Below, in pieces: positions 26,853 through 51,053 of a DNA stretch of 64,000 bases (within the stretch, counting starts at the first letter, position 1; the number at the start of each line of letters is the position of its first letter). Position numbers and translations under genes: made by a program. The stretch lies in IMG/VR virus record IMGVR_UViG_3300024268_000010; one strand, written 5' to 3'. Source of the stretch: a virus. Taxonomy: Duplodnaviria > Heunggongvirae > Uroviricota > Caudoviricetes. The notes under the pieces were generated by a model. The model did not search any database. It was not told where the DNA came from and saw nothing but the letters and a program-made list of their open reading frames with translations.

Positions 26853-28781
26853 TTAATCTCCAATCATCATTAAAAATTCATTTTCTGTAATAATAGGTAT
26901 ATTTAACTCAATCGCTTTTTTATATTTACTGCTACCACTTTGTTCGTTTGTGATTAAATAATTTGTATTTTTACTGACTGATCCGGTTGTTTTTGCGCCG
27001 AGTTCAACAATTTTTGTGTTAATACTATCTCTTGTAAAATGGGTAAGTTTTCCTGTCACGCATAGTATTTTTCCACTGAATGGATTCTGTTTCGTCACAG
27101 TCTTCGTCGGCACAACAAACTTCATCTCCGACGCTAAATCAACGATTTCTGCCTCATTGTCAATGAAATACTTAGTAATATTTGCACACGTCTTATCACC
27201 AATATCCTGTAAGTCTGACCAATTGTATCCGTTCTTAAAAGCACTAAGTAATTGCTCAAAATCACCGTTAAATGCTTCCGCAATAGTTTTGGAAGCAGAT
27301 TTACCTACTCCGTCAATAGACAAAGCACATATAAAGTTTTCAAGTTTTACATCCCTGCTCTTTTCAATTGATTCAAGCAATTTATTTACTGACTTGTCTC
27401 CAAATCCATCAAGCTTAATCATATCTGCTTTGTTGACATCCAAATAGTAAATGTCAACAAACTTAGTCAGCCAACCAAGTTCGATAAACTTTTCAAGAGT
27501 CGCCTCGCTTAACCCTTCGATATCCATTGCGGGCTTGGATACAAAGAACTTCAATCTACCCAATAATTTGCCTAAGCAGTTGATGTTTTTGCACATAAGT
27601 ACTTCGGACTCATTCTCTTTCACGACTTCAGTTTTACCACCACAAACTGGGCATTGCTTAGGATAAGTTATAGGAGAATCGCCATCCTGGAGGCAAGAAT
27701 CAATCTGAGGAATGATTTGGTTGGCTTTATACACTTTCACGGTACAATTATTCGTGAGTCCTAACTTCTTAATAATAGAAATGTTATGGAGGGAAGCTTT
27801 ACTAACATCAGTACCGTCAATATTAACTGTTTCAAAAATTGCCGTAGGAGTAAGAGTGTTTGTTTTGCCCATTGTCCATTCAATATCAAGCAGTTTCGTT
27901 TCGTAAAGTTCGTCGTAGAATTTATAAGCTAATCCTCCGCAGAAGTGGTGATCCGTTCTACCCATTAATTCATATTCAACAGGGTTATCTAACTTAAACA
28001 CCAGTCCGTCAATTGGATAACTATAATCTTCTGCAACCTGTTTTAGGCACATTGTATCCTCAACAACATGATATAAACCTCTTAAAAGCGGAACGACAGT
28101 AAAGGAAAGATTTCTGAGCCAAGCCAATACTGCACGCAGACTATTTGACTTAGGGTTTCCAATCACATCCCACGCCACAAATGTCAATTTTCTCTTGGCG
28201 CATTCGTTGCTATCAAGAAGTCTAATGCTTCCAGAAGCGAAGTTTCTAGCATTCTTATATTCGCTTTCAAATTCCTTAAAGTCGTCAAGTTTACAAATGA
28301 TTTCGCCGTCAACTACAAGCCTATCAGTATACGGAATTTTCTTTGGAATCGAAGGAATAACCATTGCATTGTGAGTAATATCCTCACCAATCTCACCATC
28401 CCCTCGTGTTTCTGCTCTTACCAGCCTACCATTTTCATACAAAAGCGAACATGTTAAACCGTCCATCTTTAACATAGCAATCCAATCTTTGTCTCCAACA
28501 AAAGATTTGATCTCTTCAATATCCTTTGTCTTGTCCAGAGATAGCATAGAATGGTTGTGCTTAACCTTCGGCAGTTCATTAACGACAGTATAGTTTACTT
28601 TTTGAGTTGGTGAGTCAGGCATAGTATATCCCCATGTGTGTTCCAATTCGACAAGTTCAAAATACTTATCGTCCCATTCTTTATCAGAGATTTCTGGAAT
28701 ACCTTTGTCATACAATTCTGTATGTCTATTGAGTTCTTTAGTAAGAAATTTAATGCGTGCATATGCGTCAAGTTTTTCCAT
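26853..28781 (-). CDS. ligA: NAD+-dependent DNA ligase
   Basis: KxDG adenylation motif (LKMDGLTCSL), zinc finger CPVCG, C-terminal BRCT-like region; start taken at MEKLD with the RBS aaggag. Confidence 0.9.
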   Translation of the reverse strand: MEKLDAYARIKFLTKELNRHTELYDKGIPEISDKEWDDKYFELVELEHTWGYTMPDSPTQKVNYTVVNELPKVKHNHSMLSLDKTKDIEEIKSFVGDKDWIAMLKMDGLTCSLLYENGRLVRAETRGDGEIGEDITHNAMVIPSIPKKIPYTDRLVVDGEIICKLDDFKEFESEYKNARNFASGSIRLLDSNECAKRKLTFVAWDVIGNPKSNSLRAVLAWLRNLSFTVVPLLRGLYHVVEDTMCLKQVAEDYSYPIDGLVFKLDNPVEYELMGRTDHHFCGGLAYKFYDELYETKLLDIEWTMGKTNTLTPTAIFETVNIDGTDVSKASLHNISIIKKLGLTNNCTVKVYKANQIIPQIDSCLQDGDSPITYPKQCPVCGGKTEVVKENESEVLMCKNINCLGKLLGRLKFFVSKPAMDIEGLSEATLEKFIELGWLTKFVDIYYLDVNKADMIKLDGFGDKSVNKLLESIEKSRDVKLENFICALSIDGVGKSASKTIAEAFNGDFEQLLSAFKNGYNWSDLQDIGDKTCANITKYFIDNEAEIVDLASEMKFVVPTKTVTKQNPFSGKILCVTGKLTHFTRDSINTKIVELGAKTTGSVSKNTNYLITNEQSGSSKYKKAIELNIPIITENEFLMMIGD

Positions 28782-28924
28782 TTTCAAGCTCCTTAATAAA
28801 ATCTGCAATTAAAACAACAACTTCTGTAAAATCTGCAGCCAAATTATCAAAACCAAGTCGTTTAAAATAATCTGCTTTTTCTTGATATTTTTCTTTTTGT
28901 TCTTTCAAATACTCTGGCGTCATA

Positions 28925-31469: not shown

Positions 31470-32396
31470 TTAACCGATTCCTTTAAGAATGGTTGTGTCA
31501 CTACCAACAACCTCCGGCAATTTGCCATCCCAGTTATCGGCATATGTTTTTTCAATAAGTTTGTCTGTAATCGACTCAGAAATCTTCTTGTTAGCTTCTG
31601 CCTCTGCTTCAGCAGCAATTCTCTTTGCCTCTGCTTCAGCTTCTGCTTTGATAATCGCCTGTTCTGCATTAATGCGAGCGACTTCTTTTTCAGCCTCTGC
31701 TTGTTTCAAAGCAACTTCTTTGTCTTTCTGAGCCTGAATCAAAGCAGTTTTCGCCTCAATCTCTGCAAGTTCAAGTTCCTGTTGTGCCGTAACTTTTTTC
31801 TGAATCGCCTGTGCGGTTTCCTCGTCCACAGAAATGTTAGTAAAGTTAACAGTATCAATAATAATTCCATAAGCAGCAAACTTTTCTCGGAGATATACAT
31901 CAAGTTCTGCATTAATTTGTGTTCGTTTATCGCCAAAAATATCTGTTACGGGATAATTCGCAGATACTTCCTGTGTCCATGCAACCACCTTGGGTTTGAT
32001 AAAAGTATTTTTAATTTCCTCTCCTGAACGACCCTTAAATAACGTAAATGTTTCTGTTAGTCTTTCAGCATCAAATTTATACGAAAACTCAAGATCCACT
32101 TTCACTGTTTTGCCATCAGATGTAGGAATGCTAAAACTTTCATCTGTCTTTGAGTCGCCTTTGTTATCTGCTGTTAAATAAGATTGTTCAAGCCCAATGG
32201 AATATGTAGTTACTTTTTTTGTAGGGGAAACCACATGCCAACCCTGTGACAATGTTTTTTCTTCAATGCCACCTCGCATATTGTAGACAACACCTGCATA
32301 ACCAGCGTCTATTTTTGCAGTGCACATAAACACCATTACAATTGCCAAAACAAGAATTACCGCCAAGACAATACCACCAACCAAACCTTTTTTCAT
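31470..32396 (-). CDS. SPFH/band-7 (prohibitin/flotillin-like) membrane protein
   Basis: N-terminal TM helix followed by an SPFH core and an Ala/Glu-rich coiled coil; start taken at MKKGLVGG with the RBS ggag. Confidence 0.75.
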   Translation of the reverse strand: MKKGLVGGIVLAVILVLAIVMVFMCTAKIDAGYAGVVYNMRGGIEEKTLSQGWHVVSPTKKVTTYSIGLEQSYLTADNKGDSKTDESFSIPTSDGKTVKVDLEFSYKFDAERLTETFTLFKGRSGEEIKNTFIKPKVVAWTQEVSANYPVTDIFGDKRTQINAELDVYLREKFAAYGIIIDTVNFTNISVDEETAQAIQKKVTAQQELELAEIEAKTALIQAQKDKEVALKQAEAEKEVARINAEQAIIKAEAEAEAKRIAAEAEAEANKKISESITDKLIEKTYADNWDGKLPEVVGSDTTILKGIG

Positions 32397-32397
32397 A

Positions 32398-32553
32398 TTA
32401 TTGCTCCTTTTCTTTATTCTCTTCAAACATTGCTTCTTTTGCATCAATAAATAATCTGCTGAAAAATTTACCAATTGGTCTGTACAAAAATGCACACAAA
32501 AACCACAGCAGACATACACCAAGAAAAACTAATAATAAAAATACGGGATTCAT
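32398..32553 (-). CDS. small membrane protein (51 aa)
   Basis: MNPVFLLLVFLGVCLLWFLCAFLYRP...; RBS aggaga. Confidence 0.3.
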   Translation of the reverse strand: MNPVFLLLVFLGVCLLWFLCAFLYRPIGKFFSRLFIDAKEAMFEENKEKEQ

Positions 32554-32658
32554 TTACATCTCTCCTATCTTATCGTTTGCGTCTTCTTGACGCCACAACC
32601 ACACCAAGAACAAAAACAATCACAAGAGTAATAGCAAACGATGTTAAACTCAAATATA

Positions 32659-33411
32659 TCATTTGTTACCTCTTTGTCTCTTTAGTTCGTCAACAACACG
32701 TTGTGCTTCTCTGTTTTGCTCCGACTGTCTCATTCTGTTCTCTGCGGCCTGAGCACTCGTATCATATGCGATCTTACTACCCTTTGCTCTTTCTCTTGTT
32801 TTCTTTGCACCTTCACGAACACGTTCCAGCATTCGATCGCTTTCACTGTTAAGTGCAAGATTGTCAAGAGATTGGTGAAGTTCAATCATTTGGTGATCTG
32901 CCTCAAGCTGAAATACAACTTGTTCTTTTTCTTCTCGAAGTTTTCTCAACTCCACTGCCGCCTGATCTCTCACTTCTTTTTGATGCTTCTGCGCTTCTTT
33001 CATTTCGGCAATTGTGTCCTGAAGAACTTCAATTTTGCTTTCCAGTGTCACCAATCTATTTGCATAATACAGTGCGTCTTCATCATTACTACCATCAACA
33101 CACAAGTTTAATTGCTGTTTGGTCTTCATAACATCTTTTTTTACTTGATACAAATCTTTTTCAGTGGTATCCACTTTACCAGAAATATCAGCATAAGTAG
33201 CAGACGCTCTGTTGTAAAATTCTTCTTTCTCACGAATGGCCGCATTATAATAATCTTTCGCACCCTCTGGCGTTGAGGCATCTTGCCTCATAATTTCATC
33301 TGTTCTTCCTCTAAATTTAACAAGCAACTGTTGCAAAAACGGCTTATTAAAAATCAAAAGAAAAACAAGTACAATGAGTAAAACTCCAATTAAAATTCCA
33401 ACAACAGTCAT
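32659..33411 (-). CDS. membrane-anchored coiled-coil protein (PspA/LemA/TelA-like stress protein)
   Basis: N-terminal TM helix (VVGILIGVLLIVLVFLLIF) followed by a long charged coiled coil; sits next to the TerD genes. Confidence 0.45.
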   Translation of the reverse strand: MTVVGILIGVLLIVLVFLLIFNKPFLQQLLVKFRGRTDEIMRQDASTPEGAKDYYNAAIREKEEFYNRASATYADISGKVDTTEKDLYQVKKDVMKTKQQLNLCVDGSNDEDALYYANRLVTLESKIEVLQDTIAEMKEAQKHQKEVRDQAAVELRKLREEKEQVVFQLEADHQMIELHQSLDNLALNSESDRMLERVREGAKKTRERAKGSKIAYDTSAQAAENRMRQSEQNREAQRVVDELKRQRGNK

Positions 33412-33422
33412 ACATTTACTCC

Positions 33423-34004
33423 TTATTCTGCGTCAATTCCATATGTGGCACACAGTTTTGCTAAGCCACCATTATATCCACTGCCAATTGCTTTGAATTG
33501 CCACTGACTATTGTGCTTATAAATTTCTCCAACGACCAATGCTGTTTGTGTGGAGAAATCCTCACTCAAATCATAGCGCAAAATTTCTTCGTTGTTATTC
33601 TCGTCAACAAGTCGAATATAGGCATTAGAAATCATTCCGAAGTTTTGAAGTCTATGCTCTGCGTCATAAATTGTAATAACTGCAACCAATCGTTCATAAC
33701 CATCAGGAATTTTTGACAATTCGATTTTGATCACCTCGTCGTCTCCGTCACCTTCGCCAGTACGATTATCTCCGGTGTGAATCACACTTTTGCTCGGATG
33801 TGTTAAATTACCATAAAAGACAAAATCATTATCATTGCCTACCTTGCCATTGTGCTTAAGCATGAAAATTGACGCGTCCAAATCAAAATTTGCTTCGCCG
33901 TCATAGTGATTAATATCCCAACCCAAACCAATAAGAACCTTATCAAGAGAGGGGTTGCCTTTTGTAAGGCTCACCCTCTGACCTTTGTTTAAACTTACAG
34001 ACAT
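33423..34004 (-). CDS. TerD-domain protein (paralogue 1)
   Basis: TerD hallmarks: GLGWD, the acidic Ca-binding GDNRTGEGDGDDE loop, FGMI. Confidence 0.85.
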   Translation of the reverse strand: MSVSLNKGQRVSLTKGNPSLDKVLIGLGWDINHYDGEANFDLDASIFMLKHNGKVGNDNDFVFYGNLTHPSKSVIHTGDNRTGEGDGDDEVIKIELSKIPDGYERLVAVITIYDAEHRLQNFGMISNAYIRLVDENNNEEILRYDLSEDFSTQTALVVGEIYKHNSQWQFKAIGSGYNGGLAKLCATYGIDAE

Positions 34005-34014
34005 TTTATTCTCC

Positions 34015-34587
34015 TTATCTATATTTTCTTGTCATCGAGGAAATACTAGTATCAGTCGTACCTTGACCGACAGCGTTGAATTTCCATTCATTATTATGAT
34101 TGTATACTTCTGCAAAAATCATTGCTGTTTTACCATCATAATTATCTGATAGATTGTACTTACAAATTTCTTTGTGTGTAGAAGCATCAACCAAACGAAT
34201 GAATGCATTCTTAATCATGCCAAAATCCTGTTTTCTTGATTCACAAGCATAAATATTAACGACAAACACAATCTTTTTTACTTTGGACGGCATATCGGAA
34301 AGGCTGACAATAATCTGTTCGTCATCCCCATCTCCATCTCCCGTGAGATTGTCTCCAGTATGACGAACCTTACCATCCAGAGAATAAGTGTGTCCGTAAT
34401 ACACACAATCTATCAACTTTTCATTTTCATCAAGAATAATTGCCGAAGCGTCACAGTCAATGTTAGGCTGATAACCGAAGATTCCTCTTTTTACAGCATC
34501 CCAACCAAGACCAACGACGACTTTGCTCAGCCCATTCACTTCTTTAGACAAACTGATTTTCTGACCCTTTGATAAACTAATAGACAT
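34015..34587 (-). CDS. TerD-domain protein (paralogue 2)
   Basis: GLGWDAV, GDNLTGDGDGDDE, FGMIKNAFIRL. Confidence 0.85.
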   Translation of the reverse strand: MSISLSKGQKISLSKEVNGLSKVVVGLGWDAVKRGIFGYQPNIDCDASAIILDENEKLIDCVYYGHTYSLDGKVRHTGDNLTGDGDGDDEQIIVSLSDMPSKVKKIVFVVNIYACESRKQDFGMIKNAFIRLVDASTHKEICKYNLSDNYDGKTAMIFAEVYNHNNEWKFNAVGQGTTDTSISSMTRKYR

Positions 34588-34603
34588 ATTTACTTCCTCC
34601 CTA

Positions 34604-35182
34604 TTAAATATTCAAACCAAAATTACGACCAATGGTGCTCAAGCCACCTGCATAACCAGAACCAACAGCAGCAAACTTCCATTCACCATTATGTCTGTAC
34701 AGTTCGCCAGCAACAATGCCAGTTTCCAGCGAAAAATCTTCATTCAACTCATACTTAAACAGTTCTTCGTTTGTGGTAATGTTATATGCTCGAATATAAG
34801 AATTGTCCACCATGCCAAAATTCTGAAGTCTTGTTTCTGCGTCATAAATCGTTGCTGCAAAACTAATCTTTGAGATATTGGTTGGCACTTTAGACAAATC
34901 AACCTTAATGGTTTCATCATCACCGTCACCAACACCACTTCTGTTGTCACCAGAATAATCGACTGCACCACTAGGATGTGTGGGCTGATTATAGAAAATG
35001 AAATCGTGTTCGCCGGTCACTTTGCCTGACGCATCGGTAAGAAATACCGATACATCCAAATCAAATTCATTGTTGCCATCATACTTATTGGTGTCCCAAC
35101 CAAGCCCAAATGCAACATTAACCAAGCCGCTGTTTCCTTTCGTCAGATCAATCTTCTGACCTTTTACCAAGCTAATAGACAT
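34604..35182 (-). CDS. TerD-domain protein (paralogue 3)
   Basis: GLGWD, GDNRSGVGDGDDE, FGMVDNSYIR. Confidence 0.85.
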   Translation of the reverse strand: MSISLVKGQKIDLTKGNSGLVNVAFGLGWDTNKYDGNNEFDLDVSVFLTDASGKVTGEHDFIFYNQPTHPSGAVDYSGDNRSGVGDGDDETIKVDLSKVPTNISKISFAATIYDAETRLQNFGMVDNSYIRAYNITTNEELFKYELNEDFSLETGIVAGELYRHNGEWKFAAVGSGYAGGLSTIGRNFGLNI

Positions 35183-35188
35183 ATTCTT

Positions 35189-37819
35189 TTATCTCCTTTT
35201 ATTAATTAAAATTTTTCTCATAATATCAATCGGGATTACGATGAACGACAATCCGATAACTACTGCCCACTGCATGGGGGTAAGGGCACAAACTTTCATA
35301 AAATCACCAGCAAGAGTACATACAAAGACTACGCCAAGCATGATACCAATTGCGATCTTGCTAAACAGTTTGTTTTTGCTAAGACCTGTAAACAGGTTAA
35401 TATGTTCGGTTCTAATATTAAAACCATTAAGCACTGCCATGAAACAGAGCAAAGCAAAGCGAGCGGTAAGTTTACTTGTTTCATCAGTAAACAATGTATT
35501 AGGAATTGCGAAAATTAAGATGGAGTATGCGATAAGAAAAGCAATGGCACTGCATGCAATTTTACATTTCGCACCACGGATGAAGAGTCCAGAACCTTTT
35601 TTGATAGGTTGTTCGTGCATATATTCTTCTTTGGGAGGCTCGCCACCAAATGACAGTGAGTTAAGAGAGTCCATAATAATGTTGACAAGAAGGATTTGTA
35701 CCGAAGCCAACACTGCCAAACCACCTGTCAGCATTGGGAAAATCATACTGAGTACAAGAAGAGAAATATTGATAGGCAACTGAAATTCAAGGAACATCAT
35801 GATATTGTGCATAAATGTTCTACCAAGCTCCACAGCTTTTACAACGGATGCGAAGTTATCATCGGTAAGAATGATATCGGATGCTTCTTTCGCAACATCA
35901 CTACCACTCTGCATACCAAATCCAACATCTGCTCTCTTCAAGGCGGGGGAGTCATTTACACCGTCACCAGTCATTGCGACCGACATACCAAGTTCTTGAG
36001 CCAAAGTAACCAATCTTAACTTTGTATTAGGGGAACATCTGGAAATTACTCTGAGACGAGGAATGATTTCTTTGACTTCGTCGTCTGACATTTTTTCAAA
36101 CTCATCGTTTGTCAATGCAACATCTCCATCTTTGTAAATTCCACATTCTTTTGCAACCGCAATTGCTGTTTCAATGCAGTCACCGGTGATTTCAATTACC
36201 TGAATACCCGCTTCGTGTGCAACACGAACTGCCTCAGGAACTTCTTTTCTTACAGGGTCAACCACACCAATGATACCCAAGAAAGTCATATCATTAGGAA
36301 GTTCATTTTCAACGAGCTTTCCGTTTGCAATACCAAGTGCAATGCATCTGATTGAGTTTGTCGTAAACTCTTTGATTTTTGCATTAAGTTCGTCTTTGTT
36401 TGCAAAACTTACAATGGAACCGTCACTTGTCATTGCAGAACTGCAAGCAGTGATAATCTTTTCTGGAGCACCTTTGTAATATGTAACTTCTTCCTCGTTG
36501 GTGCAAGCAGAATATTTGTTGACACTATTGAATACCTGTTTATCAAGTATGCCATATTCTGCAACAATATCATGTGCCTCTTTGGATGTTACCAATGATA
36601 GCACTGCTCTATCGATTGAGTTGCCACCAGTGATACAGTCATTTGAATCAAAGACGGCGCTATTGTTAAGAATAATATTGATTTTTAGAAAATCAAGCAA
36701 CATGGTGTTTTGTTCAATTTCGTTTCCGTTATAATCAACGATTGTTTTCGGAGACATAATACCAGTTGTCAGTGTGCCAGTTTTATCAGTGCAAATCAAA
36801 TTAACATATGCAAGTTCGGGAATTTTGCCGGGGTTTTTAGCAAGAATATTAAACTTTTCCATTGTTTTAACGTTCTGCTTTGTAACAAGCTTAACAATCA
36901 ACGGCAGTCCTTCTGGTACTGCGGCAACGACAATCGTAAGCGCGACAGAGAAATTTGAAGCGAACTTCTGAATAAGTTCCAGAACATTTCCTGTAAAATA
37001 CTGAGAAAATCCAACTTCCAAAATGCCCGTGATTGTCAATACAAAAAATGTAATGACTGCTGCAATTGTTCCCCATTTCGAAATGAATTCACTCAGCTTA
37101 TCGAGCGCAATGGTGAGTGCAGTCTTTGGAGCTTCCAATGTCTGCATTTTAACAAGTGTGTCACCGTTTACAGTATTAACGCCAACATCCGTGACTATCA
37201 TTTTACCTTCACCGGACATTACACTTGTTCCTGCAAACAAACAGTTCTGATTCGTGTATGCGTCAGTTGAAGTTGTTTTTGTGTGTATATAGTCTTTGAC
37301 AGGAGTTTTACGGCATTCTTTCGTTTCACCGTTAATGGCTGCGTTGTTTACACTAACCTTTCCTTCGACGATGTAACCATCTGCAAAAATTTCCTGACCC
37401 ATACCGATACAAACAACATCTCCAACTACAAGGTCGTCTTTGTTGATCGTTTGTACTTTTCCATCTCGAATAACATCACAATATCTTACCGATGTCTTGA
37501 GTCGCAATTCTGTGGCTGATTTTTGTACACCAAGACCTGTTCTGATTGCAATACCTGTGACAATTGCCAGAACCAGCATAATCATCAGAGGTTCAGAACA
37601 TTCCATTACACCGAGCGCCGCTAGTGCTAACTGCAGTACCGTGATTGCGATTAGAATTAGTGTAATCTTTTCGCTCAGTGCTTCTTTGGCAAAATCGTAC
37701 CACTTCTTTTGTTTTGGTTCAGGCAATTTGTTGCTACCATGCTTCCATCTGCTTTCAACTACCTGTTTTTGTGTCAATCCGTTCATCTTTTTTGTTTCTC
37801 CTTTTTTTGTTTCATTCAA
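35189..37819 (-). CDS. P-type cation-transporting ATPase (type II, Ca2+-ATPase-like)
   Basis: DKTGTLT phosphorylation site, TGDGVNDSPALKRADVGFGM hinge, about 10 TM segments, 876 aa. Confidence 0.85.
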   Translation of the reverse strand: MNETKKGETKKMNGLTQKQVVESRWKHGSNKLPEPKQKKWYDFAKEALSEKITLILIAITVLQLALAALGVMECSEPLMIMLVLAIVTGIAIRTGLGVQKSATELRLKTSVRYCDVIRDGKVQTINKDDLVVGDVVCIGMGQEIFADGYIVEGKVSVNNAAINGETKECRKTPVKDYIHTKTTSTDAYTNQNCLFAGTSVMSGEGKMIVTDVGVNTVNGDTLVKMQTLEAPKTALTIALDKLSEFISKWGTIAAVITFFVLTITGILEVGFSQYFTGNVLELIQKFASNFSVALTIVVAAVPEGLPLIVKLVTKQNVKTMEKFNILAKNPGKIPELAYVNLICTDKTGTLTTGIMSPKTIVDYNGNEIEQNTMLLDFLKINIILNNSAVFDSNDCITGGNSIDRAVLSLVTSKEAHDIVAEYGILDKQVFNSVNKYSACTNEEEVTYYKGAPEKIITACSSAMTSDGSIVSFANKDELNAKIKEFTTNSIRCIALGIANGKLVENELPNDMTFLGIIGVVDPVRKEVPEAVRVAHEAGIQVIEITGDCIETAIAVAKECGIYKDGDVALTNDEFEKMSDDEVKEIIPRLRVISRCSPNTKLRLVTLAQELGMSVAMTGDGVNDSPALKRADVGFGMQSGSDVAKEASDIILTDDNFASVVKAVELGRTFMHNIMMFLEFQLPINISLLVLSMIFPMLTGGLAVLASVQILLVNIIMDSLNSLSFGGEPPKEEYMHEQPIKKGSGLFIRGAKCKIACSAIAFLIAYSILIFAIPNTLFTDETSKLTARFALLCFMAVLNGFNIRTEHINLFTGLSKNKLFSKIAIGIMLGVVFVCTLAGDFMKVCALTPMQWAVVIGLSFIVIPIDIMRKILINKRR

Positions 37820-37901: not shown

Positions 37902-38930
37902 TTATATCTCACCTTTAACAATTCTCTCATTAACAGACGCCACGAACTCGTTAATTTTGTTGTAATCCGGGTTATCTGGTAACTCTGTTGTCTGCTTTGC
38001 CTTGTCGAGTCTTGCTTCTAGCTCATCTACAATCTCAAAAAATTCTGGGATTGGTTGTCTATTTTCGTCAAGATATTTACCATTACGAATATCCATAAGG
38101 AAATCATGATCTTTTTCTCTGTATGTAATAATTTCTCCATTGTTAAGAATATCAAGGCACATCAGATAAAGACGAACCAAATGCATCATGTGCTTCGACA
38201 GCTTGCCGTGTTCGATGGCATTCTGATTGCGTTTACCAATCTTGCCGTATTCTTTGACAATATTGTTCATTACAGACCACATACACTTATAATCTCTAAG
38301 AGGATAATGCTTGAGATTGACATCCATAAAGATTTCACTCTCGTACTCTTCCGACTCAGACTTGTCGATATAGAGTTTAATTGCGTCGTCATCGTATGTG
38401 AAGTATCTGGTCTTGAAATCATAGGATGCGTTTTCAATGCTATTCAGAATATGACGTTCCTGCTCCGTTTGAGATACCAATCTTGCAGCCTTATTGTCGA
38501 GACGACGTAATTGAGCATTAGCATAACCTCCAAATGAATGAACACAACGCTTTGAAAGGAATAAATGACGATGATCAAGTAATTCCTTACCTATCGGAGA
38601 GAGGTAGATATAATGTTCTGGCTTGCAACCTAATAGTTCAATTGTATTTGGATTCACATTTGTCAGAAGGGAAATCAATTTATTAAAACTATAAATTGTA
38701 GTATCAGTATCCTCGTTGACGAACTGCTCAAAATTCTTATTTGTTAAGATTTCATCTTTTGCATTTAATGCACAGCCACGGATATCAACATCAGACCCTT
38801 CCACATTAGTTCCATATGCATGACTTCCACCAAGAGTAAGAAGAATGATATTGGGACCGAGATGCTCGTTGGTTCTAAGGAAATTATATTCCGGCGTTTG
38901 TATTAGAGTTTTAATTTCATTAATTGTCAT
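37902..38930 (-). CDS. Pol-beta-superfamily nucleotidyltransferase (paralogue A)
   Basis: GGSHAYGTNVEGSDVDIRG, a GS...DxD nucleotidyltransferase motif. Confidence 0.5.
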   Translation of the reverse strand: MTINEIKTLIQTPEYNFLRTNEHLGPNIILLTLGGSHAYGTNVEGSDVDIRGCALNAKDEILTNKNFEQFVNEDTDTTIYSFNKLISLLTNVNPNTIELLGCKPEHYIYLSPIGKELLDHRHLFLSKRCVHSFGGYANAQLRRLDNKAARLVSQTEQERHILNSIENASYDFKTRYFTYDDDAIKLYIDKSESEEYESEIFMDVNLKHYPLRDYKCMWSVMNNIVKEYGKIGKRNQNAIEHGKLSKHMMHLVRLYLMCLDILNNGEIITYREKDHDFLMDIRNGKYLDENRQPIPEFFEIVDELEARLDKAKQTTELPDNPDYNKINEFVASVNERIVKGEI

Positions 38931-38957
38931 TTTATCACCTCAATCATTTTGTATGGT

Positions 38958-39836
38958 TTAATGAGCGTTTAAATCTGCTTCGTGAAGCAAATCTATCTGT
39001 TTCTTCAAGCACGGAGGTAGATTGTTGTAATACTTGGTGTTCATAAAAGGATCCATATGTGTGCTAATAAGCCAAGCAATATACGGAGTAACATATTGCA
39101 TACCATACGACACCCATGCTCCTACACATTGATGCTGATAATAATGTGCAGTTTCACAAGGATTGCCTTTATTATCTACGAATGCCTTGACATATGGTTT
39201 ACCAACATCATGATAGAATGCCGCAAACCCAATATCACTAGAATACACACCAATCTTATTAACAATATATTTGTTTGCCTCCAAACAATGGTCAAATACA
39301 TTTAATGTATGGTGAGGATTATCATGGGAAATCTGCATACTCGAACAAGTGGAATTTGCATAGTCATATGCATTAAAATCTTTTGGTTTAACAATCTGAA
39401 TTTCGTCAATACCTTCATCATAATAAGGGGCATGGAATCGTTTAAGCATTCGGTCAATAACTTCCTTGCCAACAGTACGTTCTCTCTCAGAGTCCCTTTC
39501 AATACAAACCTCAATAGGTGCCCAAGCAATATGACACTCAATCTTAGCAAACTTTGGACACGCTCCAATAATACCCATTCTATCCTTTCGGGTGACATTG
39601 GTTGCGTCATACAACACATCATGACCGTCATTAAGCGCCACGATAGCTCTATTTTGCATCAAAGAGAACACATCAACTGGATTTCCCTGTACGCTTTCAT
39701 CACCGTAAAGTTCTTTACGAATTTCGTCCGAACTTAAATGGACAGCATTTGAATTGTGTTGAATGTAATTTTTTGCATATGTGGTCTTTCCAGAACCCGG
39801 AATTCCACACAAAATTATCAGTTTTGGTCTATTCAT
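38958..39836 (-). CDS. P-loop polynucleotide-kinase-like domain fused to an HD phosphohydrolase domain
   Basis: Walker A (ILCGIPGSGKTTYAKNY) at the N-terminus; HD motifs at the C-terminus (HDNPHHTLNVFDH, FYHDVGKPY). Confidence 0.55.
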   Translation of the reverse strand: MNRPKLIILCGIPGSGKTTYAKNYIQHNSNAVHLSSDEIRKELYGDESVQGNPVDVFSLMQNRAIVALNDGHDVLYDATNVTRKDRMGIIGACPKFAKIECHIAWAPIEVCIERDSERERTVGKEVIDRMLKRFHAPYYDEGIDEIQIVKPKDFNAYDYANSTCSSMQISHDNPHHTLNVFDHCLEANKYIVNKIGVYSSDIGFAAFYHDVGKPYVKAFVDNKGNPCETAHYYQHQCVGAWVSYGMQYVTPYIAWLISTHMDPFMNTKYYNNLPPCLKKQIDLLHEADLNAH

Positions 39837-40672
39837 TTGTTAATCTCCAATTCTTTTGTAATTCCTATTTTGATAATGTTATATGCCACTTCTTCAAAAA
39901 GTGCATATACGGTTTCGTCAACAGTGTTGTTGCAGGTTTTAAGATAGTCATTGTACATTTTTTGAATATTGTCCATAGTTTCCTTACCCAGGCATCTTGC
40001 GTCATCAAGATTATATTTGCCCTTCTTAACATCGATAAGCCAGTCTGGTTCAGCAGAAATTAGGCAATCGCCAAAAGAACAACCATTTACCCATCTATGC
40101 ATAAATTCTTTAATTCTAAACAGATGGTGCAATTGTTTTACGTCATAGCCCCATTTGTCAATTACATGCATTCTCGAAGGGTACTTATGCTCCATCGCGT
40201 GATACTTTTCACCCGCAATACCCTTCATTGATTTAATCAAAGACGGCAAATTCATCGAAACAATGGAATCCCTTGCCTCAACAAGTTTATTCCATTCCTC
40301 TTCATAGATGGGATTGATAATATAATATTTTGTATATAGGATTTCAAGAAAATTAAGATTTGACTTCTTGAATGTTTCAAGTAAAATTCTAATATCCTTA
40401 AAGTCGATATGTTCATCATTCTCTCTGACGTATGTGGTACTAGTCATCTTGCTTTCTGCAAGTTCTTTAAGAGATGGTGCTAATACGCACTTTGTATCGA
40501 CGTCTGACTCATTATAATCGAGGCCATAGTTGCCTGCCCCTTGGCAGTACACGCCGACAATTCTCTCTTTGGGATATTGTGTGATAGCGTCATTGTAATG
40601 ATCCCACATTCGCTTCATTATCCAGTCATAACTATGAAAATTCATGTTAATCTCCTTAATTTCCAATTTCAA
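39833..40672 (-). CDS. Pol-beta-superfamily nucleotidyltransferase (paralogue B)
   Basis: GAGNYGLDYNESDVDTK motif, paralogous to 37902-38930. Confidence 0.5.
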   Translation of the reverse strand: MKLEIKEINMNFHSYDWIMKRMWDHYNDAITQYPKERIVGVYCQGAGNYGLDYNESDVDTKCVLAPSLKELAESKMTSTTYVRENDEHIDFKDIRILLETFKKSNLNFLEILYTKYYIINPIYEEEWNKLVEARDSIVSMNLPSLIKSMKGIAGEKYHAMEHKYPSRMHVIDKWGYDVKQLHHLFRIKEFMHRWVNGCSFGDCLISAEPDWLIDVKKGKYNLDDARCLGKETMDNIQKMYNDYLKTCNNTVDETVYALFEEVAYNIIKIGITKELEINK

Positions 40673-41873
40673 TCAGATACTTAATAGTCATTTGGTCATT
40701 TCTATAAAATACAATCTCGTCATTTCTCAACATACCCTTGTCTGCTTTTGCATGCAAACAATTACATTTGGGTGTTTTCTTCTGAAGCACATCATAATTC
40801 AAGTGATAACAACTACTGTCGTGCTGATAAATAACATAAGGTGTTCCATATGCAACTTCAAACAACGCCATGTAGGCCGTGTTATTACCACCATGTGTCC
40901 AATACGCTCCTGACAAAGATGTATATCCAATGGATTTTTGACACTTAGGGGCGAAATAGATGCCATCGCTAAACATCGATCCTGTGTATACGGCATTACT
41001 AGGACGAATCATAAGCCCGGTTTTGATAATTGAAAACCAGTTCTCGCTACGGCTACCGTGGAATAACAGTCTAGTGTCCTTGATATCGTTTTCATTAACA
41101 AACTTATCAAAGCGCTCTTGGGTCTTGAGGTTAGTAACTCTCCAAGCCTTTCTAAACTTATCAACAGACTCGTTCATTAGTGTCTTAATCAGAGCTACAT
41201 CATCTTTCGTCGCCTCTTCCATCACAAGGCTAAGTTCCTCCAAGATAGTCTGTTGTTTCTTTTCATTCGTTTCAACAGGTTCAATATCCGGCTTGACATA
41301 AATCTGTCCACGCATTACATCGAGCAGATCCTGCTCCTTAGTAATAATCTTCGAAAAGTCATCCGTATTACTAGCCAAATAACACCGTACATCACCCATT
41401 CTACGAGGAATAACTGTAAACAACTTAAGTAGATTGGCATTAAACTCTTCCACAGTCGCACTATTATTAGCAAGTTCGTCGATAATTTTCTGTGCGGCGT
41501 CAACCATATCCTTGGTTACAGCAGACGCCTTAACAGTATAGTTCTTGCGAACCGTCTCACGAGCAAGACTTTGCAACTTTTCAACGATTAGTCTTACGGC
41601 TTCGTTTTCAATTTCTCTATAAGGACTTTCGGGATTGGTAGAAGAAATTTCCTCTACCAAGTCTTTCCGAAGATCTGTTACATCCACGTATCCTTTTTTT
41701 AACTTTGCTTTGATTTGTGATTCGAATTTAGAGATTGGATAGTATACCGTTGTTTTAGTTGCGTCAATGCGTCCATACTCCACTCTACATCTATCGCCTT
41801 CCGGAAAAATGTTGTAATATTTATTGTTATTTTGTGCCGTTGTCATAACGAGATAAGTGGGCCGTACTTCCAT
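40656..41873 (-). CDS. WGR-domain poly/mono-ADP-ribose polymerase (PARP catalytic domain)
   Basis: N-terminal WGR (RVEYGRIDA); C-terminal PARP core LLFHGSRSENWFSIIKTGLMIRP...YTGSMFSDGIYFAP, matching the human PARP1 block LWHGSRTTNFAGILSQGL...GYMFGKGIYFA. Confidence 0.75.
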   Translation of the reverse strand: MEVRPTYLVMTTAQNNNKYYNIFPEGDRCRVEYGRIDATKTTVYYPISKFESQIKAKLKKGYVDVTDLRKDLVEEISSTNPESPYREIENEAVRLIVEKLQSLARETVRKNYTVKASAVTKDMVDAAQKIIDELANNSATVEEFNANLLKLFTVIPRRMGDVRCYLASNTDDFSKIITKEQDLLDVMRGQIYVKPDIEPVETNEKKQQTILEELSLVMEEATKDDVALIKTLMNESVDKFRKAWRVTNLKTQERFDKFVNENDIKDTRLLFHGSRSENWFSIIKTGLMIRPSNAVYTGSMFSDGIYFAPKCQKSIGYTSLSGAYWTHGGNNTAYMALFEVAYGTPYVIYQHDSSCYHLNYDVLQKKTPKCNCLHAKADKGMLRNDEIVFYRNDQMTIKYLIEIGN

Positions 41874-41885
41874 GATGTCCTCCTA

Positions 41886-42311
41886 TTAAAGTTCACAAAT
41901 CAAAATCTCAACGTCTGTATCTTCGAACACTTCACAAATAATATCGTAAACATCGTCCCACTGAAGGCGATCAAGACCACAACCGATTTTCGGCATTGCC
42001 AACTTAGTTGCGTCAAGGTTTACCATAATTTCTTTCATCACTTCAAGTGCTTCTCTTACGGCTTCATATCTAGGTTTATGATAACACTTCGGCTTCGTGA
42101 CAAGATTGAACACATTATCAATCGGAAGTGCGTCTCCACCCTCGTATGCATAATTATCATAGTTCTTAAAGAGCTTAAATCTCATGTTGTAAACTTCATC
42201 AAACTTCTTCGCAATACCGGCACCGAGAGCAAAGTCGGCACTAATGCAGTGTGCCAGATAATAGCCCTGAGGCACCGTAAACAAGTCTCTTTTTTCAATT
42301 GTAATATTCAT
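41886..42311 (-). CDS. macro-domain protein (ADP-ribose binding/hydrolase)
   Basis: 141 aa; ALGAGIAKKF glycine-rich macro motif, IGCGLDRL. Confidence 0.7.
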   Translation of the reverse strand: MNITIEKRDLFTVPQGYYLAHCISADFALGAGIAKKFDEVYNMRFKLFKNYDNYAYEGGDALPIDNVFNLVTKPKCYHKPRYEAVREALEVMKEIMVNLDATKLAMPKIGCGLDRLQWDDVYDIICEVFEDTDVEILICEL

Positions 42312-42326
42312 AATTCTGTTCTCCTA

Positions 42327-43499
42327 TTATTTAAAAATTGTTACTGACTCTCTGTCTCGTCTATCAGACAAATAAATATTGTTTATAAAACCTCTTTGCA
42401 ATACCGAATAATCAAACTGCTTTTCGTTTGTGTGAGTAATTGCAATAGATGTAATGGCATTAAATTTTTTCAAATCACTCTTATTGATATCATTGTGTAC
42501 ACGATTCAGCAATTGTTCTGGAATGAGCTCACCATAACGCAAGTTGCCTTGAAACTCATTAGTAGGGTTGCTTTCATCAATCATCATTGAATTAATGCAG
42601 TCCTTGCCACATTCTGTTTCAAATCTGCCGGCACCATGCCTTGTCATATAAGTTCGACTTACATAACACACCTCAAGATTCGCCTTATCAAATACACCAT
42701 TAATCACCTTAAGAGGATTTGTAATGCCCGTGTTGCTTGGAGTGGTATTATCTCCATAGAACGTCATATTTTGGTCGAGAAGAAGTCCTTGACCATTTTC
42801 GAACACAACATTGTTAAATTTCTTTAAGAACGCATATGGAGCAGTCGCCGTATGCAAACACATATATTTAACATCTGCAATAAAATTATCGATCAGAACT
42901 TTAGAGTATACAATTTCCTTCCATTCACACGGAATGCTTGTAATCCCGTGTTCTTTAAGTCTGTCCATCATATAAGAATCCCTAAGGCTTTTCAAATACG
43001 ATACTTGTGTATCGTAAGATAGGTTTGCAAACTCATTCAATGTGAATACGCACGGTTTTTGCGCATATCTATATACAGTCTCCCATATACCCATTCCACA
43101 ACTGCCATGCTTTTTATTGTCTCGAACTTCTTCTCCAATCTGATTAATAAACATGTCATAAGGAGTAGTCCATCTGCAATTTGGATGAATATACATAAAT
43201 GGCTTGTAACCAATGCTCCACAATTCGTTGTACTCTTTGACAAAACTCATAGGGTTAAGTATATAATCTTCCATGCAGTATGTGCTTGCTCCGGCTAATG
43301 TTCCAGAACTAAAATGCTTAAATATAAATTTTTCACCGTTTGGTGTTGTAACAGTATGGCCTCTTTGTGCTCCACCATTACTCATAACAACTATACAATT
43401 TTTCCCTTGTGAAGTTGATTGATGACAGAAATAATCCGTCATCAATCCCTTACCTTCATCGCCAAAATTAGCACCGATTACAACCTTTATGTTTGTCAT
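42327..43499 (-). CDS. adenylosuccinate-synthetase (PurA) family enzyme, divergent (PurZ-like candidate)
   Basis: P-loop GDEGKG, GHTV, VFENGQGLLLD, TRHGAG and TTPSNTG blocks match the PurA family, but overall identity is low. Confidence 0.7.
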   Translation of the reverse strand: MTNIKVVIGANFGDEGKGLMTDYFCHQSTSQGKNCIVVMSNGGAQRGHTVTTPNGEKFIFKHFSSGTLAGASTYCMEDYILNPMSFVKEYNELWSIGYKPFMYIHPNCRWTTPYDMFINQIGEEVRDNKKHGSCGMGIWETVYRYAQKPCVFTLNEFANLSYDTQVSYLKSLRDSYMMDRLKEHGITSIPCEWKEIVYSKVLIDNFIADVKYMCLHTATAPYAFLKKFNNVVFENGQGLLLDQNMTFYGDNTTPSNTGITNPLKVINGVFDKANLEVCYVSRTYMTRHGAGRFETECGKDCINSMMIDESNPTNEFQGNLRYGELIPEQLLNRVHNDINKSDLKKFNAITSIAITHTNEKQFDYSVLQRGFINNIYLSDRRDRESVTIFK

Positions 43500-45932: not shown

Positions 45933-47438
45933 TTACATTTCAGAAAGAATGTCATCGCTTACATTATCGACTCCGCCTTCTTCAACTTGTGCCACTGCAA
46001 TTCCGGACAACGCCTTAAAGAACCAGTTCTTGTGCTTATATGCACAGAACTTAGGACGGTTGATAATACGCACTACAACTCCCTCACGAATGTGCGTCTT
46101 ACCGACAGGATCGGGACCATCGTAGAACTGTTCAGCAATATCTTTTACTGCTTCGCCAATATGAGCTTCCTCATATTTAGCAACAAAGCGCTCTTCTCCT
46201 TCTGGAGTGGTATAGTACAATATAGAGCCATTGTTGTTCAAAATTGCTTTTGCAAAAACAGGGACAGTCTTTACACCAATCTGCTCACAACGGTAACGCA
46301 TAAAGTCGGGGCTATACTCAACAGTGAAGCCGTCTTCGTTGGTCATGGTCATACGATATACATAGATGTCTGACTGAGGCGTTTTTTCATTATAAACATT
46401 AACACCTTCAATCATATCCTCTGTCTCAACCAACCGAAGACCATCAGGTTCGCATCCATAAGAGAACACTGTGGTCTGTCCATACTGTTTAACAAAATCT
46501 TTATCGTTGAGTTTCTTATTGTCTCCACTTGCCATAATAGGGGCACCAGTATGAGTGTATCCCACTACTTCGTAGAAAATTTCCTCACCCTTATTCAACT
46601 TGCCCTCAAAGAACTTTGAATGTGCTTCACGGAATTCATTACTTCCATAATATCCACCCTCAAAATTCTCAAGTACGGTACGACGAGTACCAGATACGTA
46701 GCCCCAATCATAAATTGGCTCGCCGTGCTTAAGGCTATGATATAGCGCATTACGTCCATCCGAACCCCAATTCTTTTTTGCCTTGACTGCCATTATAAGC
46801 TTGTTGATGAATCTACGATAAGAAGAATCTTTATAACCAACAAGAACAGGAAGATAGCCAGTTCTCTGTGAAGTGCCATGCATCTTGAGTGTAATCTCAA
46901 TCTCATCACCGGGCTTAAATGCGCCAAGATTGTACGCAAGCTGTTCAGTATCTGCGTGTTCTGAAAACAAAGGTGCTACGGGCACTTTCTTCTTTCGAGT
47001 CTTGTTACCAGAAGAATAATGTCCTCTTCTATTCTGAGCGCGAGGTACATATTTGCAACAAATCTCGTGTCCGTTAAAACTATTAATTGCTCCCTCACGA
47101 AGAGTGGTAATATCACCAAAAGATTCAAGTGCCTTCAGAGGAAGGAAGAGGCCATCCGATTTCTCACCCCGAAGCTTAATAGCAGTTACATTTCTCTTGT
47201 CGGGATCCATATAACCACCGATATTATTACCGTTCTCATCCTTCTTGCGAAGCAGGTTGTTTGCCTCTGCGAATTCTACGGAAAGCTGACCGTCCGAAGG
47301 GAAATAAATTCCTAACTGATTATCCTGATACTCCATCGATACGATTACGGCATTGCCAAAGCATTCACCAATCTGTAGTCGATCTGCATTTGGATGTTTG
47401 TGTAGGTTTTTGATTCTTGTAATGTAAGCGTTGTACAT
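45933..47438 (-). CDS. RNA ligase (Rnl2-like nucleotidyltransferase motif I KMHGT) with an N-terminal tRNA-binding (Myf/CsaA-like) domain
   Basis: N-terminal NLHKHPNADRLQIGE, a tRNA-binding-domain signature; TLKMHGTSQRTGY resembles the KxHGT(N) motif I of the T4 Rnl2 family. Confidence 0.5.
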   Translation of the reverse strand: MYNAYITRIKNLHKHPNADRLQIGECFGNAVIVSMEYQDNQLGIYFPSDGQLSVEFAEANNLLRKKDENGNNIGGYMDPDKRNVTAIKLRGEKSDGLFLPLKALESFGDITTLREGAINSFNGHEICCKYVPRAQNRRGHYSSGNKTRKKKVPVAPLFSEHADTEQLAYNLGAFKPGDEIEITLKMHGTSQRTGYLPVLVGYKDSSYRRFINKLIMAVKAKKNWGSDGRNALYHSLKHGEPIYDWGYVSGTRRTVLENFEGGYYGSNEFREAHSKFFEGKLNKGEEIFYEVVGYTHTGAPIMASGDNKKLNDKDFVKQYGQTTVFSYGCEPDGLRLVETEDMIEGVNVYNEKTPQSDIYVYRMTMTNEDGFTVEYSPDFMRYRCEQIGVKTVPVFAKAILNNNGSILYYTTPEGEERFVAKYEEAHIGEAVKDIAEQFYDGPDPVGKTHIREGVVVRIINRPKFCAYKHKNWFFKALSGIAVAQVEEGGVDNVSDDILSEM

Positions 47439-49605: not shown

Positions 49606-49680
49606 TGGCTGGGATGGAAGGGATCGAACCTTCGAATACAGGAGTCAAAGTCCTGTGCCTTACCACTTGGCGACATCCCA
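49606..49680 (-). tRNA. tRNA-Gln (anticodon TTG)
   Basis: Hand-folded cloverleaf: acceptor TGGGATG/CATCCCA, anticodon loop CUUUGAC, T-loop TTCGATC, CCA encoded. Confidence 0.7.
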
Positions 49681-49769
49681 ATATATTGCGCTTTTAACTT
49701 CGATAGGAGCGCTAACCTATCAAGCAATCACCTTCATCCACTTTGGAGTCATACCAAGGTTGCTCGTAT

Positions 49770-50845
49770 GATATGATTTTTGTTGACAAAAGCACACGAG
49801 TGTGTACGATTATCTGTGTAGCATGGCGCCACATTGAGGTGTCGATCCCCATACCTTTCACAGTACCTTTCGTTTTCAAGACGAAGTGCGAAGCCGTCCG
49901 CATTAATGTGGCATTTGGCGGAAAGCGTAGTATTCGAAACTAATACACTAAACATGTACGCATCCCTTAGCAGGGGAGCCGCAATCCTCTTGCGTTCACT
50001 TTCCATATTAAGAGCCGAGTATTCTATTATCCATGGAAGCCCCTCGGCTGGGCTACTCTGTTATCCTGAGTAAGGTGTGTCCTTATCGGACTAAATGCAT
50101 CAACCGCCGAAACGATTGAAGGAACCTTTTCTACTGCTAGTAGATAGGCACAATTTGGTTAACCAAAAGACAGTAACGATATGGACAAAGCCGGCTTCGA
50201 ACCAACCTCACCAACAGCATCGTCCCTCACAATGCTTAGTGCCCAGTATCTACATCTTTTGGTATACGATTTCTATCTAAGCATCGCAACGACACGTTCT
50301 CGTCTTCCGCCGCTGGCAGTTCATTAGCTTCCCACTTATCCCTCAATTCAATCCGTCCCCAGCACGCATGCTGTCGAGGGGGCCAACTACTTTTCGATAG
50401 TATTGTTGTTTATAGGCTGTTCATCTCACATCCATTTACCACAGCTGCTAGACCTCACCTTTATAATAGTATCGACCTATTTCCTGGATGTTTACTCGGG
50501 TTAACAGCCCGTCCCAGGCTTCGTGGCACCTATAATTAACTTTCTTGTTCTGGCGCCCTCAAGAGAAAGGGTTCGTTAATGTGCCATAACGATAGGCTCC
50601 CTCACAAAAACTATCTGGAGAATAACACCAAACAATCGCGGCTTGTAGCTGCCCGTTATGCCCAGCTTCTATATTCCCACTATGCCCTTCGCTACAAATT
50701 AAAGCGAGTTTTTTATAAACAAGTACTCACCCTCCCGATTCTCCAAGTGAGACATCTGCACGATTGACCCATAATATTCAACCCTTTTCGGTGTAACAAA
50801 CAGATGTGACTATTTTATTGATCGTTCTTTTATCACAATACTTGT
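49770..50845. other. about 1.1 kb of GC-rich, ORF-poor sequence between tRNA-Gln and tRNA-Trp; probably a structured ncRNA of unknown identity
   Basis: Markedly higher GC than its surroundings, many local hairpins, and no plausible ORF with an RBS. Confidence 0.3.
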
Positions 50846-50849
50846 TCTT

Positions 50850-50924: not shown

Positions 50925-50935
50925 ATATAACTAGC

Positions 50936-51018: not shown

Positions 51019-51053
51019 GAAGCCAATAGAATTAAAGTTGCTGTAGGTGACTA

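Follow-up and report, generated by a model that had tools for sequence, protein, structure and literature searches.

A 64,000-nucleotide stretch of DNA from a phage of the class Caudoviricetes (IMG/VR record IMGVR_UViG_3300024268_000010; the whole stretch is hereafter called the window) encodes a macrodomain protein and a PARP homologue side by side, and we conclude that the two form a co-transcribed, reversible ADP-ribosylation module of a phage of ~175 kb. The predicted writer is a PARP-family ADP-ribosyltransferase of 405 amino acids with WGR, probable helical and ADP-ribosyltransferase (ART) domains (40656..41873, minus strand), and the predicted eraser is a macrodomain ADP-ribosyl hydrolase of the TARG1/OARD1 type, 141 amino acids long (41886..42311, minus strand); both open reading frames (ORFs) lie exactly where an earlier note on this DNA had placed them. 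By analogy with better-known enzymes we favour, at a probability of roughly 0.5, the reading that the module would provide nick- or break-activated, self-limiting and reversible ADP-ribosylation in the service of phage DNA replication and repair.

The macro gene had been described as following the PARP gene, which is true in plus-strand coordinates only; in the order of transcription the macro precedes the PARP. Both genes are on the minus strand, and only 12 nt separate the macro stop codon from the PARP gene. Direct reading of the sequence places a strong Shine-Dalgarno motif, AGGAGG, inside this gap, 6 nt before the PARP ATG (41879..41884, minus strand), and another strong one, AGGAG, 10 nt before the macro ATG (42321..42325, minus strand). 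The locus is a dense stretch of co-directional genes, with 15 nt between the PurA-like gene upstream and the macro gene. A scan for promoters and terminators around the pair found them no more often than in shuffled DNA; the operon call is therefore based on the gene spacing and the ribosome-binding sites.

The same arrangement recurs in related phages. From 80 IMG/VR loci and 80 genome loci encoding PARP relatives, we found a TARG1-like macro just upstream of the PARP and on the same strand at 76 of the 80 viral loci, and downstream of it at a 77th; two of the four viral loci that have no upstream macro also have almost no upstream sequence. Across loci L011-L107 the macro is upstream and on the same strand in 92 of 97, and in 75 of those 92 the gap does not exceed 120 nt, with 15-25 nt being typical. 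When the PARPs were dereplicated at 90% identity, 57 lineages remained, 52 of which carry the macro (at most 150 nt from the PARP in 42). Where the gap is larger, ~0.8 kb, a small ORF has been inserted, much as a homing endonuclease gene has been elsewhere in the window; several of these ORFs (L017, L019, L040, L052 and L082) are homologous to a protein that weakly matches the AP2 DNA-binding domain. Divergence of the macro and of the PARP is correlated (r 0.37; 0 of 2000 Mantel permutations as high). The writer-eraser pairing proposed in the earlier note therefore holds up as a tightly spaced, co-directional unit, and both proteins of the window keep their catalytic residues.

This partnership is not a general property of PARPs, an idea that we rejected, but ends at the edge of the clade. 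No adjacent macro was found at the Bacteroidota chromosomal PARPs examined (Saprospiraceae, Cytophagales and others; 35-40% identity), whose neighbours are varied and unrelated, nor at the PARPs of the huge phage LR756500, of Cellulophaga phi4:1 and of XacN1; for Klebsiella FBKp34 there is just a weak macro, ~2.5 kb upstream of the PARP. A PDB search with phi4:1 gp030, which lies between PARP and ligase and was considered as a hidden macro, gave no support for that assignment. Clustered at 90% identity, the databases that we searched yielded over 4,000 PARP and over 3,000 macro clusters; canonical TARG1-type macros had earlier been reported as scarce in bacteria, with 33 sequences (PMC6397177). 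Some contigs of 157-425 kb with PARP homologues are binned into metagenome-assembled genomes (MAGs) of Pacearchaeota, Treponema and Absconditabacterales: L091 and L093 carry the macro-PARP pair and a DNA ligase, and L110 (JBBACR010000001.1) carries the PARP alone. These may be phage contigs that were mis-binned.

Judged by sequence and by a structural model, the 405-residue protein is a minimal PARP similar to PARP2 and PARP3, with WGR, probable helical and ART domains and a complete His-Tyr-Glu active site. The Pfam PARP profile (PF00644) matches residues 243-403 with 80.2 bits against a cut-off of 26.7 (E 1.9e-22), which bears out the family assignment made before, and the two core blocks singled out at that time are present (LLFHGSRSENWFSIIKTGLMIRP, residues 269-291; YTGSMFSDGIYFAP, residues 296-309). 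The catalytic glutamate, which the earlier note had left to a full alignment, is E386 in LRNDEIVFY, aligned to LLYNEYIVY of PARP1. The triad H272/Y306/E386 is thus complete and is invariant in 92 phage-clade sequences; in a family alignment of 81 diverse relatives (34-48% identity) H272 and Y306 are invariant and E386 is kept in at least 90%. Searching the PDB by sequence returned PARP1 catalytic fragments (E 4e-12) in an alignment that begins at residue 118, in the helical domain, and continues through the HGS and GIYFA blocks. Residues G273, M300, K313, S314 and Y317 align to the donor- and acceptor-site positions G863, M890, K903, S904 and Y907 of PARP1. K313, S314 and Y317, together with K18, G34 and R35 of the WGR domain, are invariant across the 92 phage-clade PARPs.

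The ART domain comprises approximately residues 241-405 (40659..41153, minus strand) and holds the triad as well as M300, K313, S314 and Y317. It is preceded by a probable helical, regulatory-like domain at about residues 88-240 (41154..41612, minus strand), which aligns to its counterpart in the catalytic fragments of PARP1 and PARP2; the AlphaFold model is all-helical over residues 91-190, with moderate confidence there, and the Pfam PARP_reg profile detects no such domain in the window protein and does so in only 1 of the 81 relatives. The N-terminal WGR domain (approximately residues 5-66; 41676..41861, minus strand) is basic (pI 9.4) and is marked by the motifs NNNKYY and Y33-G34-R35. The earlier description of a WGR motif is correct for the domain but not for the letters, since tyrosine takes the place of tryptophan. 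As a single sequence the protein scores 16 bits with Pfam WGR (E 0.014), below the threshold of 22, so the domain is established only at the level of the family, where 61 of the 81 relatives match. A family profile (positions 10-399) aligns end to end with the WGR-helical-ART architecture of PARP2 at E 1.4e-36 and places the family YGRVG on WGRVG of PARP2.

The AlphaFold model, built from 64 sequences, has a mean predicted local distance difference test score (pLDDT) of 73 and a predicted template-modelling score (pTM) of 0.61. Its top PDB matches in Foldseek are WGR-catalytic chains of PARP1 and PARP2 on DNA breaks (E ~4e-16, probability 1.0). Like human PARP2 and PARP3, which are clade-1, DNA-dependent PARPs, the phage protein has WGR and ART domains, with a probable helical domain between them, dispenses with zinc fingers, and shares the His-Tyr-Glu triad and the donor-site residues position by position. 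In contrast, the identity in the structural alignment is only ~18-20%, the N-terminal extension is absent, and the WGR domain is shorter, with its Trp replaced by Tyr. Relatives are abundant, numbering 2857 at E<=1e-3 and 628 at E<=1e-30 in a library of representatives at 50% identity, and most of the best 150 listed are ~400 amino acids long.

Annotated phage PARPs are full-length homologues of the window protein at 24-33% identity (phi4:1 gp031, Xanthomonas XacN1 ORF414, Klebsiella FBKp34 gp111 and Aeromonas Aeh1), but none of them has an adjacent TARG1-type macro. The chromosomal PARPs of Herpetosiphon aurantiacus and Clostridioides difficile CD160 are short WGR-(helical)-ART proteins of the same broad family that automodify with poly(ADP-ribose) (PAR) in vitro, the Herpetosiphon enzyme in a DNA-dependent manner (PMC8120803, PMC5966428). 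These are functionally paired with a PARG encoded elsewhere, whereas the phage PARP shares its operon with a TARG1-type macro; by Pfam, no PARG or ARH domain occurs in the ORFs of at least ~100 amino acids in the 64-kb window, out of a phage of ~175 kb.

The macro protein had been called an ADP-ribose reader or eraser, and the sequence comparisons point to the eraser class. Pfam Macro is barely above its cut-off (22.5 against 22 bits), and a PDB search aligns the protein over its full length with human TARG1/OARD1 (4j5r, 2eee and 2l8r; E 3.2e-27; residues 3-139 against 8-144 of TARG1), which confirms the macrodomain assignment. The next match is the DarG macro (5m31, E 3e-4), and no MacroD or PARG structure appeared in that search at E <=1. 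K73 aligns to K84 and D114 to D125 of TARG1, the two residues of its Lys84/Asp125 catalytic dyad (PMC9411070, PMC6397177). This dyad, GAGIA and GCGLDRLQW are conserved with human TARG1 (C6orf130) and Fusobacterium FmTARG1, and identity with human TARG1 is ~40% in a full-length alignment. Of 70 unique orthologous macros, 67 retain the catalytic Lys and 45 the Asp; 12 others have Asn and 10 have Gly in place of the Asp, the Lys-only state seen in DarG, and among related phage lineages a quarter to a third show such a replacement. With PADLOC and NCBIfam, only the macro part of DarG is recognised (E 2e-13 and 8e-11), the match covering positions 27-146 of the 338 of the DarG model with 41.7 bits against a cut-off of 250. 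Unlike human TARG1, the phage protein is encoded beside its presumed writer and is acidic, with a pI of 4.7 against a calculated 8.55; the phage macros as a group have a median pI of 4.76, and 65 of 70 lie below pI 8. Taken together, the comparisons identify the predicted eraser as a stand-alone TARG1-type hydrolase, not a MacroD, PARG or DarG protein.

Because the macro belongs to the TARG1/DarG class, the alternative raised earlier, that it reverses host defences such as DarT, is viable. Here the macro would strip ADP-ribose that host ARTs have set on phage nucleic acid (for example DarT on DNA thymidine, or end-modifying or mRNA-modifying ARTs), and the PARP would be separate or auxiliary. 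The nearest defence-related relative of the macro is indeed that of DarG, DarTG is an anti-phage system (cited in PMC9503650), and phosphate-linked ADP-ribose at DNA and RNA ends is another substrate of TARG1 (PMC11833690). We nevertheless regard this as an unlikely explanation of the module, as it leaves the coupling of macro and PARP in 52 of 57 lineages unexplained, and the acidic phage macros do not resemble the positively charged active-site surface of DarG (PMC6397177). The readings are not all mutually exclusive: one and the same macro could reset the PARP and also remove marks made by the host.

The phage pair shares with DarT-DarG the two-gene combination of an ART with a TARG1-like macro and its writer-eraser logic. 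It differs in that the ART is of the PARP family, with a WGR and a probable helical domain, and in that the eraser gene comes first, the reverse of the DarTG order. We rejected membership in DarTG itself, the partner being a PARP rather than DarT and the macro having no counterpart of the C-terminal DarT-binding domain of DarG. A toxin-antitoxin-like or exclusion module is a related proposal, in which the PARP would act as a break-triggered NAD+ consumer or toxin curbed by the co-translated macro, for stabilisation of a prophage or plasmid or for abortion of superinfection. It draws on the tight eraser-first layout, which resembles antitoxin-toxin operons and follows DarT/DarG logic, and on a serine recombinase and TubZ in the window, which suggest a temperate or plasmid-like state. 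It seems improbable to us, since the PARP matches no PADLOC model, a finding that also speaks against any catalogued defence system; since the macro, of 141 amino acids, lacks the DarT-binding part of DarG; and since a replication-module context is atypical for accessory exclusion cassettes.

In the reading that we favour, the basic WGR domain would bind phage DNA that is being replicated or has been damaged, at a strand break; the likeliest break is a 5'-phosphorylated nick, which is the substrate of DNA ligase. DNA binding would lift the inhibition exerted by the helical domain, and the ART domain would then use NAD+ to place ADP-ribose on itself, on nearby proteins (at Glu and Asp) and/or on the DNA end. 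The ADP-ribose would mark or shield the break, and the enzyme would be released. Removal of the ADP-ribose by the TARG1-like hydrolase, including the unit attached to the target, would reset the system and leave the nick sealable. The eraser, made first from the shared transcript, would restrain the writer, and nicotinamide salvage by the phage would offset the cost in NAD+.

Several properties of the characterised enzymes fit such a cycle. PARPs modify Glu and Asp when HPF1 is absent, we know of no HPF1 partner in prokaryotes, and TARG1 also removes thymidine-linked ADP-ribose. PARP2 and PARP3 lack zinc fingers, and nicks with a 5'-phosphate, the form of DNA present just before ligation, activate them best (PMC4081085); DNA modified by PARP3 can still be ligated (PMC5843604). 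In human cells DNA-linked ADP-ribose occurs at unligated Okazaki fragments, where PARP1 writes it and TARG1 erases it (PMC11102865). TARG1 cleaves ester-linked ADP-ribose on Glu and Asp by a Lys/Asp mechanism (PMC9411070), bacterial TARG1 strips mono- and poly-ADP-ribose from proteins and can remove whole chains (PMC6397177), and phosphate-linked ADP-ribose is cleared from DNA and RNA ends, from RNA more efficiently (PMC11833690). The PARP2 residues reported to hold 5'-phosphorylated DNA are K130, K183, Y201 and R153 (PMC8150716); K130 and R153 have invariant counterparts in the phage proteins, K18 and R35.

The genomic neighbourhood was surveyed by clustering all ORFs of the 57 representative loci and annotating the commonest clusters. 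DNA polymerase III alpha (DnaE) is nearby in 24 of the 57 lineages and a DNA ligase lies within 5 kb in 19. In 15 lineages the ligase is directly upstream of the macro, and this slot is filled by two unrelated types of enzyme, NAD-dependent LigA in 7 and an ATP-dependent ligase in 8. An ERCC4-type nuclease is near the pair in 11 lineages; a PD-(D/E)XK nuclease, ThyX, guanylate kinase, a nucleoside deoxyribosyltransferase-like protein and a DNA methylase also recur there. In Cellulophaga phi4:1 the PARP is independently followed by one small gene and then an ATP-dependent ligase. Across the family as a whole, the genomic context favours DNA replication and ligation over host takeover. A more specific proposal, which we put forward only tentatively, is that macro, PARP and ligase form a viral nick-surveillance circuit in thousands of phages of anaerobic Firmicutes, in which nicks or Okazaki ends would be marked, the mark cleared and ligation would follow. 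General recruitment of LigA through a PAR-binding BRCT domain was discarded, since 8 of the 15 adjacent ligases are ATP-dependent and show only ligase and OB domains in Pfam; such recruitment is possible in phages that carry LigA, such as that of the window.

Host takeover deserves consideration in the same light. T4 Alt, ModA and ModB are likewise phage-encoded, NAD+-dependent ADP-ribosyltransferases, and on this alternative the PARP would similarly (poly)ADP-ribosylate host proteins such as RNA polymerase or the translation machinery, the macro serving only to limit stray modification of phage proteins. This has been predicted in print for jumbo-phage PARPs (PMC7824862), phage ARTs commonly target host proteins (PMC9503650), and an acidic macro suits protein-linked substrates. 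The T4 enzymes are mono-ARTs of the Arg-Ser-Glu (cholera-toxin-like) clade that act on host proteins and have neither sensor domains nor a dedicated eraser (PMC8120803). The window protein falls outside that clade: its active site is His-Tyr-Glu, and its surroundings are replication and repair rather than head packaging. The pair sits in a block for replication and nucleotide metabolism, by DnaE, ligases and nucleases, not in the head-packaging context of injected ARTs, and the strictly conserved architecture of a break sensor, with its WGR and probable autoinhibitory helical domains, would be needless in a constitutive host-modifying toxin. We consider host takeover unlikely, though of the alternatives it is the one we would take most seriously.

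A number of observations weigh against a nick- or break-activated system. The AlphaFold model is only moderately confident. The 5'-phosphate contacts of PARP2 are not clearly conserved, as K183 aligns to V65 and the equivalent of Y201 is uncertain. The phage family does not have the long loop, of ~22-28 residues, that precedes the catalytic Glu in human PARP1 and PARP2, and Tyr986 of PARP1 corresponds to Asn384; given these two differences, the product may be either a polymer or single units. The acidity of the macros, compared with the positively charged active-site surface of DarG, mildly disfavours a DNA-bound substrate for the eraser. Adjacency to ligase and DnaE may in part be inherited synteny of a replication module, relatedness having been handled by dereplication only. 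In the window itself the ligase is 12 kb from the pair (NAD-dependent LigA with BRCT by Pfam, outside the operon; 26853..28808, minus strand), and the pair is flanked directly by genes for a PurA-like enzyme upstream and for RNA-repair-type enzymes downstream, namely a nucleotidyltransferase (NTase), PNK-HD and RlaP.

RNA- and DNA-end repair genes do adjoin the pair, as had been noticed before, and they invite the alternative that writer and eraser would add and remove ADP-ribose at RNA termini during the repair of tRNAs cut by host nucleases. RNA-repair genes lie next to the pair both in the window and in a relative 80% identical to it, phi4:1 has an NTase of the CCA-adding or poly(A)-polymerase type just upstream of its PARP, and the preference of TARG1 for phosphate-linked ADP-ribose on RNA over DNA (PMC11833690) would suit such a role. 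Across the clade, however, neighbours of this kind are rare (PNK-HD at 6, RlaP at 5 and an RNA ligase-like gene at 3 of the 80 viral loci), and it is DNA ligases and DnaE that are common across the 57 lineages, which makes RNA-end chemistry the least probable of the explanations that we weighed.

The protein families and their occurrence in phages are not new, and relatives are labelled PARP or NAD+ ADP-ribosyltransferase in GenBank and UniProt. To our knowledge, none of the prokaryotic or phage PARPs has an established physiological role. The phage PARP homologues of Aeh1 and phi4:1 were on record by 2014 (Perina et al. 2014, PMC4245714), jumbo-phage PARPs have been discussed (Iyer et al. 2021, PMC7824862; PMC9503650), and TARG1-like macros have been noted in many viral genomes (PMC4245714). 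In the literature searched we found no description of a conserved eraser-first TARG1-PARP operon, of its restriction to one large phage clade, or of its recurrent place behind ligase and DnaE. Such a system is of interest given that the origin of eukaryotic PARP signalling is unresolved. At 405 and 141 amino acids it is compact, its writer and eraser are genetically coupled, and the eraser is of the type that in humans reverses the ester-linked and DNA-linked ADP-ribose made by PARP1. Its genomic setting yields a concrete hypothesis concerning nicks and ligation in phage DNA replication. If the nick-surveillance circuit were true, it would be a prokaryotic-virus counterpart, and possibly the evolutionary source, of eukaryotic PARP/TARG1 signalling at Okazaki fragments. 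The pair would also be a convenient minimal system in which to study PARP allostery, and it could supply robust TARG1-type enzymes.

NAD salvage genes, which the earlier note had placed next to the pair, are present in the window some 10 kb away, beside LigA. They comprise a nicotinate phosphoribosyltransferase (NAPRTase) gene (29641-30834, minus strand; 483 bits, above its cut-off) and a gene for a nicotinamidase-like isochorismatase of 172 amino acids (28925-29443, minus strand), for which the assignment as a nicotinamidase is weak. With LigA-BRCT, the isochorismatase and the NAPRTase, positions 26853-30834 of the minus strand resemble an NAD+ economy block, and the two salvage enzymes could recycle nicotinamide released by the PARP.

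The gene directly upstream of the macro (42327-43499, minus strand) encodes a divergent adenylosuccinate-synthetase-like protein whose PHROGs family is named PurZ-like. It scores 94 bits against a PurA cut-off of 402 and 36 against a PurZ cut-off of 300, and keeps the Asp of GDEGKG. An assignment as PurZ, and hence a diaminopurine genome, is unsupported, the PurA models scoring higher. The same gene, phrog_2971 and a protein of 202 amino acids precede the macro-PARP pair in L015 and L058. The 80%-identical relative keeps the order macro, PARP, NTase and PNK/HD but not the PurA-like and TerD genes. On both sides of the pair lies an RNA-repair-like set (37902-40672 and 45933-47438, minus strand) made up of an RlaP NTase, a second, RlaP-related NTase, a fusion of PNK kinase and HD phosphohydrolase, and a protein with a PHA02142 OB domain that is weakly assigned as a DRB0094-type RNA ligase. 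Further upstream (52001-53608, minus strand) a DUF2828/DUF7788 protein is encoded.

The phage setting assumed earlier is clear from the gene content of the window, which encodes tail proteins, a holin, an amidase endolysin, seven tRNAs, DnaE, a helicase, RecJ, dUTPase, TubZ, a serine recombinase and an anaerobic ribonucleotide reductase, and from the IMG/VR relatives. An identical PARP protein was read on 22 contigs; tallied by the length of the longest contig, 19 of the 22 entries are between 50 and 200 kb. Two of the contigs, which come from separate samples, share a length of 174,765 bp and carry the gene at different coordinates, which suggests a complete, circularly permuted genome. No phage in GenBank matched the window at the DNA level, and the phage is known from metagenomes only. 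Relatives at 45-54% identity occur in Clostridia, both in isolate genomes and in MAGs (Lachnospiraceae, Ruminococcus, Lacrimispora, Oscillospiraceae and Clostridium sp. AM45-5); isolates with homologues include Ruminococcus sp. YE282, Lacrimispora amygdalina and Clostridium sp. AM45-5. At 17491-20652 of the minus strand a block encodes the anaerobic ribonucleotide reductase NrdD, its activase and dUTPase; it indicates an anaerobic host, in agreement with the Clostridia relatives, and we regard the virus as a large phage of anaerobic gut-type bacteria. A gene for the tubulin-like segregation protein TubZ (plus strand) adjoins that for a large serine recombinase (minus strand) at 14170-17192, which hints at a temperate or plasmid-like prophage lifestyle for this phage of ~175 kb.

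Further features of the window stand apart from the pair. The minus strand carries a stress- or tellurite-type cluster at 31470-37819, with three tandem TerD genes, a P-type cation ATPase of 876 amino acids, a PspA/IM30-like protein, an SPFH/Band-7 protein and DUF5662. A tRNA array (Gln, Trp, Gly, Met, Leu, Pro, Leu) occupies 49606-51551 (minus strand), where the local GC content is 0.46 against ~0.36. At 23074-26585 (minus strand) a C5 cytosine methyltransferase is seemingly split, the N-terminal motifs being encoded at 25761-26585 and the C-terminal motifs at 23074-24636, with an HNH endonuclease ORF (25069-25686) between the two halves. Finally, a NUMOD3/I-HmuI-like homing endonuclease gene (59471-60325, minus strand) is inserted between those for an SF1 helicase and RecJ.

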